Below are positions 26,601-31,757 of a DNA stretch of 64,000 nucleotides, piece by piece. Made by a program: the position numbers and the translations under genes. The DNA is taken from IMG/VR virus record IMGVR_UViG_3300021978_000001, positions 96,001 through 160,000 of that record; one strand, 5' to 3'. The stretch comes from a virus. Lineage: Duplodnaviria > Caudoviricetes. Each line of letters begins with the position of its first letter. The first letter of the stretch is position 1. The notes below the pieces were generated by a model. The model did not search any database. It saw only the letters and a program-made list of their open reading frames with translations, and was not told the origin of the DNA.

Positions 26601-27308
26601 TCAGTTCGATAAAAACTGATCTTTTTGTCGAACGATCTCGCGCGCGATATGCACCGCGAACGCCACCGGCTTGATCACCTTGCACCCATAACGGGGCGAT
26701 TCGGAGAGCATCTCAGGGTCGTACTCATTGAGGCACTCATAGAACTTGTCCTCGCTGTCGATCGCGTGCCACAGCTCGAACCAATCAGGCTCGGAAAGCT
26801 CCTCCTCTTCGTCCAACTCCTCGCCCTCTTCGAGATCATCGAGCAGTTCCTTGTGTGCGGCAACCTCGTGATCCCACCAATCCAGGATGTCATGCGCGGC
26901 GAGCTGTCCGTCATATGCATAGGGAGAGCGCACGGGGTTGTTCCCACAGTGATACTTCTCTTCGAGGTAGCGACCCCATGCATGCTGGTCGATGAAGCGC
27001 GCGGCATCCCAGACATCCGTGCCGCGATACCGGAAACGCATGCAGCCAAACGACCAGGTATCGACGTAGATGTAGCCGTTCTTGATGTAGAACTCGCTTC
27101 CGGTCGAGAGAGATCCCTGTGAGAGCGTGATCACGGTCCCGTATGGGCCTTCCTTGACCTTGGTGATGGGGTACTCGCCTTGAAAGGTCGGGAGCACTTC
27201 AGCGTCCGCGTGCGAGCGCAGGCGGGTGAGGTATTCATTCTCGGACATACATAACTCCTGAACGCAGATGAAACGTAAAAACGGCGTGTCGAACAAGGGG
27301 TGGGTCAT
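26601..27308 (-). CDS. hypothetical protein
   Basis: 235-aa ORF with GGAGG RBS. Confidence 0.65.
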   Translation of the reverse strand: MTHPLFDTPFLRFICVQELCMSENEYLTRLRSHADAEVLPTFQGEYPITKVKEGPYGTVITLSQGSLSTGSEFYIKNGYIYVDTWSFGCMRFRYRGTDVWDAARFIDQHAWGRYLEEKYHCGNNPVRSPYAYDGQLAAHDILDWWDHEVAAHKELLDDLEEGEELDEEEELSEPDWFELWHAIDSEDKFYECLNEYDPEMLSESPRYGCKVIKPVAFAVHIAREIVRQKDQFLSN

Positions 27309-27374
27309 GGATAAAGCCTCCAGGAATTTCTGCCTGGCTTCGCCTTACACGCAGAGTGGCTACGTGTAAGGTAT

Positions 27375-27485
27375 AGGAGGTTGCACGGGATTGAACCGTG
27401 CTATCGCTCATGTCAGCCCGAAGGCACCACGCGCGAATTATCCGAGAACCATAAACCCGGCATTTCGACACGCCGTTTGGTCTCC
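27375..27485 (-). ncRNA. tRNA-like structured RNA of unknown class
   Basis: Ends in T-arm CACGG-TTCAATC-CCGTG then ACCTCC; several hairpins including GCC-TTCG-GGC; no standard cloverleaf. Confidence 0.4.
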
Positions 27486-27514: not shown

Positions 27515-27542
27515 GGACCATCCCCTCATACGAGGGGAACAT
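27515..27542 (-). CRISPR. solitary I-E-like repeat with compensatory stem change
   Basis: ATGTTCCCCTCGTATGAGGGGATGGTCC (CCCCTC/GAGGGG stem). Confidence 0.8.
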
Positions 27543-27578
27543 ATTTCTCGCACCATTCGCAATGGAGACCGTTCTCAG

Positions 27579-27650
27579 TGGAGCTTGAGAGACTCGAACT
27601 CTCAATTCAACCTTGCAAAAGTCGTGTGATCCCAGTTTCACCAAAGCCCC
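27579..27650 (-). tRNA. tRNA-Ala(TGC)
   Basis: Cloverleaf, G3:U70. Confidence 0.9.
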
Positions 27651-28240: not shown

Positions 28241-28379
28241 TCTGAGCCGAACAAGGTGTGGATCTGGGGGTTTAGCGTGCTACCATTACACTACCCTGGG
28301 GGTTAACCCAGGGCCGGGACTCGAACCCGGACCGCCTGATTTGCATTCAGATAACCCATCTCCGGCATCTCGGCTCAGA
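28241..28379 (-). tRNA. circularly permuted tRNA-Cys(GCA) (28275-28350) inside hairpin cassette
   Basis: Order: anticodon arm, T arm, CCCTGGG, TTAACC, CCCAGGG, D arm; U73; joining restores C27-G43. Confidence 0.8.
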
Positions 28380-28407
28380 ACTGTGCTCTCTCTTGTTACG
28401 AGAGAAG

Positions 28408-28736
28408 ATCAAAGGTGTGTCCACCAAGGCTGCACCCGAGTAAGGGTATATAGGTGGCATCGTTGTGTGGCCGCCGTCTACGCGCCAACTCGTGGCCTAT
28501 CGCCGTGGAGAAGGTTCGCGCACCGGGCTGGCGGGCGCCCTCATGATCGAGATTGCTCTCGACCTTAGCCTTGAGCCTTCGTGGGGAAGGGACTCTCAAG
28601 GGAGGGTGAGCTTGGCCTGACAGGTGTAACCTCGATAGGAGACTACCCCGTTTCGCTAGACCCCTCACGGGGATTCACTACCTTCGGACCGTTATTGGGA
28701 TAACCCACCTACGGCAGCTCAGGCACAGCTCTTGAT
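28408..28736 (-). ncRNA. hairpin cassette enclosing an about 249-nt structured RNA (28451-28699)
   Basis: GCTGCCGTAGGTGGGTTATC 5' arm, TATACCC 3' arm; GNRA hairpins inside. Confidence 0.6.
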
Positions 28737-28825
28737 GAACACACCTTTGGAGACCTCGGAGCTTCCGAGCGCGCACCACCCCGCTAAAGATAAAGCGGCT
28801 CGGTGCTCCGAGATCCCAAAGAAAA

Positions 28826-28891
28826 GTCACGGTCAAAGTGATGTATATGGAATATTCTATCTCCGATAATCCATACACGGCATACCGTAAC
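28826..28891 (-). ncRNA. hairpin cassette, near-empty copy
   Basis: GTTACGGT-ATGCCG-TGTATGGATTATC-short loop-TATTCCATATACA-TCACTTTG-ACCGTGAC. Confidence 0.55.
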
Positions 28892-28892
28892 A

Positions 28893-28973
28893 AGCGAGCG
28901 ACGGGACTCGAACCCGCATGCGTTAAAGCGACAGCTTGGAAGGCTGTTGTCCGACCAGTTGGACCTCACTCGC
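28893..28973 (-). tRNA. tRNA-Gly(TCC) with unusually long variable region
   Basis: ACAGC-CTTCCAA-GCTGT, U73, 13-nt variable region. Confidence 0.8.
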
Positions 28974-31051: not shown

Positions 31052-31195
31052 GGACCATCCCCGCATACGCGGGGAACACGCTCCACAACACACTCGGGCG
31101 CCTGGGTATACCCACGACGCAGATCCGCTTGACGGTGGAGCGACAGGCGGAAGTGGTACGGCAAGGCGAACCATCCCCGCGCACGCGGGGAACAT
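31052..31195 (-). CRISPR. two I-E-like repeats (31052-31079, 31168-31195) separated by 88 nt, between tRNA-Ile and tRNA-Met
   Basis: Near-identical to the array repeat. Confidence 0.85.
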
Positions 31196-31235
31196 GGACC
31201 TCACGGATGCATCGACGCGAGATCTCACCATACCA

Positions 31236-31666: not shown

Positions 31667-31757
31667 GCGCCATCCCCGCATGCGCGGGGAACACTAAATC
31701 TGAACAAACACAAGCAGAGCGCCCGAGATGAACCATCCCAGCATATGCAGGGAAATC
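31667..31757 (-). CRISPR. repeat-spacer-repeat unit (31667-31694 and degenerate 31730-31757, 35-nt spacer) upstream of tRNA-Val
   Basis: GTGTTCCCCGCGCATGCGGGGATGGCGC plus a degenerate copy. Confidence 0.75.

Follow-up and report, generated by a model that had tools for sequence, protein, structure and literature searches.

Genomic setting

The window analysed here, 64,000 nt of DNA, covers bases 96001-160000 of a phage record that is complete, carries terminal repeats and measures 437,490 bp. It contains 26 tRNA genes, all on the minus strand. The element described below lies at 124.4 kb of the phage record, within the densest stretch of this minus-strand tRNA array, and was therefore read on the minus strand. 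The phage encodes a complete Ro60 as a 583-aa ORF at record positions 295160-296911 (TROVE E 3e-41; Ro60 vWA E 3e-60), about 170 kb from the element. In the published cases, YrlA genes are no more than about 4 kb from the Ro60 gene and share its strand, having been searched for by that criterion (PMC4201824); the positions here are 124.4 kb for the element versus 295 kb for Ro60.

Conserved flanks recur on one strand of the array, in seven elements listed by a first-pass annotation of the sequence and in an eighth at 27277-27478. The first-pass annotation had interpreted this frame as a circularisation or splicing cassette shared by permuted tRNAs. In a permissive Rfam scan, the YrlA-like neighbour of the element (28242-28375) aligned across the entire Rfam YrlA model at 32.3 bits. 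A near-empty small Y-like copy (28826-28892) spanned the whole model of the nematode stem-bulge RNA (sbRNA), a Y RNA homologue, at 34.2 bits against a cut-off of 38. According to these alignments, the flanks are the closing stem of the YrlA and sbRNA families. The frame is thus common to the element and its neighbours, as had been proposed, but it is a Y RNA-type stem and not a cassette. The "permuted tRNAs" of the array are YrlA-type Y RNAs, as indicated by the flank matches to the YrlA and sbRNA models, the UGGGUUAUC box with its YUAY motif, the Ro60 gene of the phage and the same handles in other giant phages.

Several further features of the array were recorded. The eighth Y-type element (27277-27478, minus strand) has a 14-bp outer stem, GUCGAAAUGCC in its 5' arm and UUCUC replacing UUAUC. 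Its body of about 150 nt contains a T-arm-like hairpin and extra hairpins; Rfam yielded a weak RAGATH-36 match alone (29 bits), and a 13/13 identity to 16S rRNA 1022-1034 corresponds to a UUCG hairpin and is probably due to chance. A CRISPR type I-E-like repeat hairpin (GUUCCCCGCG...CGCGGGGAUGG) is scattered among the tRNA and Y RNA genes, with minus-strand copies at 27518-27545, 31060-31085, 31175-31200 and 31670-31700. The small hairpin AUCCCCGUGAGGGGU within the element showed a weak likeness to a CRISPR repeat model (E 1.9).

Three strain-level relatives (L188, L192 and L193) were compared with window positions 27578-27650 and 28826-28973 and with the spacers, and single array genes were found to be replaced by unrelated sequence. 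The replaced genes were tRNA-Gly, tRNA-Ala(UGC) and the small Y-like element at 28826. They showed about 60-70% apparent identity, and their neighbours 97-100%. Since single genes are replaced amid near-identical neighbours, the array is a mosaic between strains.

A conserved structured RNA gene

The minus strand of 28390-28760 folded with a dG of -162.7 kcal/mol, compared to -128.8 +/- 5.7 kcal/mol for shuffled sequences (z -6.0; none of 100 shuffles equal). For the body alone (28458-28704), the minus strand gave a z of -2.36 and the plus strand one of +0.77. The strong fold and the lack of a tRNA match agree with the first-pass description of a structured RNA other than tRNA in the repeated frame. 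The extent given there, 28408-28736, was revised to about 28410-28749, where a stem of 19 and 12 bp closes the element (28749-28718 with 28440-28410). Features of the element are listed in Table 1.

Table 1. Features of the element, in positions of the window.
Feature	Position	Strand	Basis
Whole RNA, about 340 nt, handle and body	28410..28749	(-)	Fold z -6.0, predicted helices, conservation in relatives
Long lower stem, 5' strand; 19 + 12 bp, one bulged A	28718..28749	(-)	Pairs with 28440-28410, mean pair probability 0.99-1.0
Long lower stem, 3' strand	28410..28440	(-)	Predicted helix list
5' handle arm: CUGAG-CUGCC, upper stem GUAGGUGG, GUUAUC (UGGGUUAUC box, YUAY motif)	28699..28722	(-)	Identity to YrlA-like neighbour, descriptor
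3' handle arm: upper stem CCACCUAU and internal loop AUACCCUUA	28441..28457	(-)	Layout as in the 3' arms (...ACCUUG...) of the seven further elements
Small hairpin GUUAU-CCCA-AUAAC, directly past upper stem	28691..28704	(-)	P 0.81; analogue in sister phage G001
Block like 23S rRNA 1914-1937 (21/24), holding 16-mer GGUCCGAAGGUAGUGA	28674..28697	(-)	blastn-short, local alignment, 23S profile
Arm b: long irregular hairpin, opening with bulged helix GGUC-C-GA	28614..28690	(-)	Predicted helices; two changes in a relative (28628, 28644) keep pairs
Arm c: three-way element, CCUUGAG/CUCAAGG helix and GCAA-capped hairpin	28535..28611	(-)	P 0.96-1.0
Arm d: helix 68-like	28469..28533	(-)	Chain alignment to 23S, fold of base
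Block like 23S rRNA 1830-1843 (13/14)	28533-28520	(-)	Chain alignment
Block like 23S rRNA 1897-1909 (12/13)	28481-28469	(-)	Chain alignment

Identity of the element was 97.7-100% both at three loci reached via the neighbouring gene and in contigs drawn from four metagenome runs, each belonging to a different study. The spacer just upstream (28751-28825) was only 73-76% identical in two of the three strain-level relatives, and some nearby tRNA genes were replaced. The conserved block in these relatives stops where the lower stem stops. At predicted paired sites, five of the six changes kept the pair, among them an A>G at 28420 in the lower stem of one relative; because the relatives found are strain-level only (97.7-100% identical), such changes are no real test of covariation. 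In one relative, a 1-nt deletion at 28563 and a U>C at 28546 rebuild the GCAA hairpin with a G-C closing pair.

The first-pass annotation had noted that translation of the region would speak against its RNA. The three ORFs overlapping the element matched no Pfam family, and the deletion at 28563 would frameshift every ORF spanning the site. A coding reading was dropped on these grounds and because the fold is strand-specific. Fold strength, conservation compared to the spacer, pair-keeping changes, the ORF-breaking deletion and the lack of Pfam families together identify the element as a conserved structured RNA gene, neither coding sequence nor spacer.

Searches beyond the strain level returned no relatives. 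No more distant homologue was found by blastn against 50,697 phage records, and none of the element among 16 Ro60-encoding phage records. Scanning IMG/VR with a 16-mer gave two chance coding matches and no homologue, and a handle-pattern scan of IMG/VR gave about 110 matches, essentially all chance. A 20-mer scan of metagenome contigs returned three copies of one unrelated coding sequence. The neighbouring 120-aa protein likewise had no relatives past strain level.

The handle

The ends of the element pair with an internal loop, as in Y RNAs. The lower stem is followed by the loop CUGCC/AUACCCUUA and by an upper stem in which CCACCUAU (28457-28450) pairs with GUAGGUGG (28712-28705) at P 0.86. 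The first-pass annotation had predicted a ligation junction, joining CCUA to CCC, that would pair with an internal GGGUAG; no such junction is needed, as these strands pair as the upper handle stem. The 5' arm was identical to that of the YrlA-like neighbour (28373-28350) at 20 of 24 positions, and it was the closest 24-mer to the neighbour's arm on both strands of the 437-kb genome. A strict descriptor (perfect 7-bp lower stem, perfect 6-bp upper stem, GGNUUAUC box and YUUR in the 3' loop) found the element and four of the other seven, with no matches in five shuffled windows. A handle covariance model built from 10 small handles recovered the small copies and the YrlA-like neighbour (20.4 bits) and was unable to span the 236-nt insert. 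The YUAY motif that follows the stem of YrlA lies within UGGGUUAUC (Chen et al. 2014, PMC4201824), and UGGGUUAUC is present in the human RNY4 primer sequence (PMC13382184).

The Ro60-contact motif was sought on the 5' strand as GNCGAAN0-1G (bacteria) or GGUCCGA (vertebrates). It is degenerate in the outer handle, which reads CUGAGCUG; the YrlA-like neighbour has CCGAGAUG. An exact GGUCCGA is present inside the body at 28690-28684.

None of the Y RNA models of Rfam reported the element, and neither ARAGORN nor Rfam (E up to 10) found a tRNA or YrlA match, with the T and D arms of YrlA (RF02553), in 28451-28699. Membership of YrlA in the strict sense was rejected: there is no T/D arm, no Rfam match, and the Ro60 gene is 170 kb away. 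By their sequence and pairing, the flanks appear to be the Ro60-binding type of stem of Y RNAs, an assignment that we regard as fairly secure. It is also fairly secure that the element, part of the phage tRNA/Y RNA array, is an oversized kind of Y RNA, and it is most likely linear.

The body

The body of about 240 nt is three-armed and unlike a tRNA. Three motifs emphasised in the first-pass annotation are all present on the minus strand: CCCC-GUGA-GGGG (28672-28661), GUCGAGA-GCAA-UCUCGAU (28563-28546) and CCUUGAG/CUCAAGG (28601-28595 and 28575-28569). The GCAA hairpin and the CCUUGAG/CUCAAGG helix were predicted at P 0.99-1.0, whereas the CCCC-GUGA-GGGG hairpin fell outside the minimum-energy fold, in which AGGGG pairs with CUCCU. 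In arm b, the GGUCCGA of the body opens a bulged helix, with GGUC paired to GGCC (28690-28687 with 28617-28614 in the minimum-energy fold), a bulged C, and GA paired to UC.

No Rfam family matched the body at gathering or permissive thresholds (E up to 10), the weak matches being short CRISPR-repeat hairpins alone (E 1.9). This is consistent with the earlier statement that it is not tmRNA, RNase P, SRP or 6S RNA. None of the Rfam Y RNA models matched arm b. Antisense targets and paralogues of the body were sought in the phage genome, and none were found.

Similarity to 23S rRNA helices 67-71

A search of the E. coli rRNA operon by blastn-short matched 28695-28678 to 23S 1916-1933 at 17 of 18 positions (E 0.006). 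The extended match was 20/22, with a local score of 34 compared to 21.7 +/- 2.2 for shuffled sequences (0/300 equal). When the body was joined across the handle, placing its 3' part before its 5' part, a chaining alignment to E. coli 23S recovered three blocks in 23S order (Table 1). The chain score was 40.7, compared to 21.0 +/- 2.3 for dinucleotide shuffles (0/200) and 21.2 +/- 2.3 for 400 natural segments of the same phage, whose maximum was 31.7. The body scored 18 against 16S rRNA and 18 against reverse-complement 23S. For arm d alone, the best chain in the whole of 23S was 1830-1909, ending 5 nt before the 1914 anchor (score p about 0.03). When 115 bacterial 23S sequences were aligned, all three blocks fell on columns with a conservation of 90% or higher. 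A profile of this 23S region from 116 species, run against the whole phage genome, gave the element as its sole notable match (E 0.015; next best 4.6).

The 23S order of the blocks appears only after the body is joined across the handle. Because this order requires the 3' part first, the body reads as a known fold in permuted form, and the point of permutation is where the handle sits. The first-pass annotation had suspected a permutation from a junction placed within a helix, and that intuition fits the alignment; the circle derived from it is unsupported.

Structural correspondence was observed at the base of arm d, which has the layout of the E. coli helix 68 base, where a 3x3 internal loop separates a helix of 3 bp from one of 6 bp. 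In the 6-bp helix two pairs are changed on both sides, from UGCCGG/CCGGUA to UGCGCG/CGCGUA. Forcing a helix 69-like base (GGUC 28690-28687 with GGCC 28472-28469) cost 4.8 kcal/mol over the optimum. The forced fold has the 23S topology: arm b stands in for helices 70/71, arm c caps a short stem resembling helix 67, and arm d is the helix 68-like arm. In this picture, the handle would occupy the place of the helix 69 loop, as the YrlA handle occupies that of the tRNA anticodon stem.

The 23S likeness consists of three short blocks, and the remaining body showed no significant similarity to 23S. No significant rRNA similarity was seen in arm c. The Rfam LSU model RF02541 gave nothing in the whole phage genome (E up to 10) and nothing in the element, even in searches of 91 to 126 nt. 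A genuine 23S gene or fragment was rejected, given the lack of an RF02541 match and the limitation of the similarity to three blocks. None of 185,579 species genomes contains the 20-mer that surrounds the core, and the body is therefore not a recent copy of a known rRNA gene. Mimicry of 5S rRNA was rejected as well: the local alignment to E. coli 5S was not significant, with 16 of 500 shuffles equal.

The core 16-mer GGUCCGAAGGUAGUGA, which includes GGUCCGA, matches the 5' end region of RNY1 from human and mouse without a mismatch, and part of the 23S match may for this reason be a mere Y handle motif. The RNY1 sequences are those of published primers (PMC13382184). As a separate observation, the human RNY1 5' end (GGUCCGAAGGUAGUGA) and E. 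coli 23S 1921-1936 of the helix 69-70 strand (GGUCCUAAGGUAGCGA) themselves agree at 14 of 16 positions. By a rough estimate this agreement is borderline unusual (about 0.06). Ro60 has been implicated in rRNA maturation and decay, which makes it a curious one. Weighing these comparisons, we put the chances about even that the body represents a circularly permuted mimic of the rRNA junction at the bases of helices 68 and 69.

Related RNAs in other Ro60-encoding phages

In other giant phages encoding Ro60, which were found via the Ro60 protein, the tRNA genes are likewise interspersed with arrays of this handle type. Their handles are often nearer the vertebrate form, GGGCCGAWRG...GGGUUAUC ... 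ACUUGCCC. The tRNA array of one sister phage (G004, 462 kb, with Ro60) includes an RNA of about 185 nt (L178:3968-4170, minus strand; contig about 188967-189169), closed by a 9-bp stem and just upstream of a YrlA-like gene. The first hairpins of this RNA matched positions 1095-1146 of the Rfam bacterial LSU model, which form the L11-binding GTPase centre (18.2 bits, E 8e-4), and 24 of 26 positions agreed with E. coli 23S 1054-1079. The RNA may represent another type of rRNA-domain mimic, and its match to the LSU model indicates that rRNA-like RNAs in such arrays are not unique to the phage studied here.

The same G004 array contains a class II tRNA whose variable arm (L178:5286-5304, minus strand) is identical to E. 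coli 16S 758-776 over 19 of 19 positions (E 0.004, with 230 kb searched). Either the identity is a rare coincidence or it adds one more small likeness to rRNA. Because the match is the variable arm of a phage tRNA, it illustrates that short striking matches can arise without mimicry.

A large non-tRNA body of 223 nt on a Y-type handle was also observed in sister phage G001 (359 kb, with Ro60; L134:6506-6765, minus strand). It opens with a GUUAU-CUUA-AUAGC hairpin, analogous to the GUUAU-CCCA-AUAAC of the element. This body had no Rfam match and showed a weak 15/17 likeness to 23S 642-658 (z about 2). Two further sister phages carry orthologous YrlA-like RNAs (L183:12735-12944 and L177:9959-10080, both minus strand) with bodies of 204 and 116 nt. 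The difference is an insertion of about 90 nt in the loop closing the acceptor-like stem, and Y RNA bodies in these phages therefore grow by insertion.

Ro60 docking and alternative explanations

The outer motif is degenerate and the exact GGUCCGA lies in the body, so that Ro60 may dock on the outer handle, on the inner GGUCCGA or on both. GGUCCGA is the strand contacted by Xenopus Ro60 (PMC4201824). The 16-mer shared with human and mouse RNY1, the opening of arm b by GGUC/GGCC, a bulged C and GA/UC, and sister-phage handles that read GGGCCGAAG... all resemble a vertebrate-type site. The Ro60 of a Thermus phage forms dimeric particles on its Y-like RNA (PMC12135203). These observations speak for an alternative in which a Y-type RNA offers Ro60 two docking sites and does not mimic rRNA: GGUCCGAAGGUAGUGA and the bulged helix of arm b would form a nested site, and the 23S likeness would be a by-product of the motif plus chance. 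Such an RNA would not explain the additional AUAAC match upstream of the 16-mer, nor would it explain why the best match of arm d adjoins the anchor (1830-1909, 5 nt before 1914). Arm b, moreover, matched no Rfam Y RNA model. We regard this explanation as unlikely.

Less probable still, and in our judgement doubtful, is a structured RNA unrelated to Ro60. It would be a processing stalk or a regulatory or decoy RNA of the tRNA operon, with arms inherited by duplication of a Y-like neighbour and a body that may be a functionless, decayed rDNA relic. The degenerate canonical motif of the outer handle and the mosaic nature of the array are compatible with this origin, and binding of the handle by Ro60 is deduced from its sequence. 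However, all 340 nt stayed 97.7-100% identical although adjacent spacers and some tRNA genes had been replaced, the changes observed preserve pairing, and the handle features are intact.

A circular product is unlikely, and the first-pass proposal of a natural circular noncoding RNA, in which the flanks would excise a 249-nt cargo and ligate its ends, is very improbable: it could draw on flanks conserved around varied cargos and on a body that behaves as a permuted version of a known fold, but the flanks match Y RNA/sbRNA models and form a closing stem of the ordinary sort, YrlA RNAs with this frame are known to be linear (PMC4201824), no Rfam ribozyme family matched the flanks, and the complete phage genome has no RtcB (PF01139), tRNA-intron endonuclease (PF01974) or Rnl2-type ligase (PF09414) that would support circularisation.

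Proposed function

The explanation that we consider best, and likely to hold, is a linear Y-type noncoding RNA of about 340 nt in which a Ro60 handle carries, as bait, a body partly reproducing a permuted 23S junction. From the computed structure, handle homology, Ro60 gene and 23S similarity, we infer the following course. The element would be transcribed from the minus strand as part of the phage tRNA and Y RNA array. The long stem is a probable RNase III-type double-strand processing stalk that would free the RNA from the array transcript, since 31 bp is long enough for double-strand-specific cleavage. The ends would form the handle, with its 31-bp lower stem, conserved internal loop, 8-bp upper stem and UGGGUUAUC box, as in the seven smaller Y-like RNAs. 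The phage Ro60 ring protein would then dock on this handle.

The three-armed body of about 240 nt would replace the tRNA-shaped body of the YrlA-type neighbours. In permuted form, part of it would reproduce a junction of 23S domain IV, namely the base of helix 68, that of helix 69 and the strand 1914-1937. Arm c would cap a possible helix 67-like closing helix. The YrlA body is a tRNA mimic recognised by tRNA enzymes (PMC4201824), and Y RNAs tether Ro60 to PNPase, also in a Thermus phage (PMC12135203). By analogy with these RNAs, the Ro60 particle would most likely display an rRNA-shaped bait. The bait could recruit or titrate a factor or enzyme, or the small (30S) subunit, that recognises this region of the 50S interface. 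Besides the 30S subunit, candidate partners with affinity for this part of 23S include RlmG (G1835), RluD and RlmH (helix 69) and ribosome recycling factor.

A stronger version of this proposal is that the body is a deliberate permuted mimic of the 23S helix 67-71 junction on a Ro60 handle. Together with the L11-like RNA of the sister phage, it would mean that giant Ro60 phages deploy rRNA-domain mimics beside tRNA mimics, as a means to hijack or decoy host factors that interact with the ribosome. We advance this version tentatively and lean slightly against it.

Comparison with known systems

To our knowledge, known bacterial and phage Y RNAs are small, and their bodies, where understood, imitate tRNA. 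The Y RNA frame of the element is already known. No description was found, in the literature searched, of its size, non-tRNA body, nested RNY1-type helix or 23S-like junction.

The closest parallel in organisation is YrlA (RF02553; Chen et al. 2014, PMC4201824). Similar to YrlA, the element has paired ends that form a handle, followed by YUAY, and a body that resembles a permuted imitation of another cellular RNA. It also belongs to a Ro60-encoding genome, and its neighbours are tRNA genes and bona fide YrlA-like copies. Unlike YrlA, it has no T/D arm and no RF02553 match, its body is about 240 nt rather than about 70 nt, its lower stem is 31 bp, it is 170 kb from Ro60, and its body resembles 23S rRNA and not tRNA. 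If the proposal is true, Y RNAs would be a general display scaffold for RNA mimics.

Metazoan RNY1 and RNY4 and the nematode stem-bulge RNAs (RF01656) share with the element the exact GGUCCGAAGGUAGUGA (RNY1), UGGGUUAUC (RNY4) and a bulged-helix architecture. In the element, however, the two strings lie in two nested stems; it is three times longer and matched no Rfam model of these RNAs. Sixteen bases held exactly in common with human RNY1 indicate strong conservation of the Ro60-binding strand from phages to vertebrates.

The Yrl1 and Yrl2 RNAs and Ro60 of Thermus phage phiLo (PMC12135203), and the Deinococcus Rsr-Yrn1-PNPase complex, provide a functional parallel. In phiLo, as here, Ro60 and Y-like RNAs are phage-encoded. 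In both systems a Y RNA tethers Ro60 to a second partner, and the same role may be suggested for the element. The phiLo and Deinococcus RNAs differ in being small and in adjoining the Ro60 gene. If true, the proposal offers a testable entry into the role of giant-phage Ro60 systems.

Compared with 23S domain IV helices 67-71 (E. coli 1830-1975), the element is permuted at the helix 69 loop and has substitutes for that loop, for helix 71 and for most of helix 68. The LSU covariance model gave no match, and the 20-mer is absent from 185,579 genomes. What the two have in common is three conserved blocks in order, a helix 68-like base and a possible four-way topology. Should this likeness prove true mimicry, it would link phage Ro60 particles to the ribosome.
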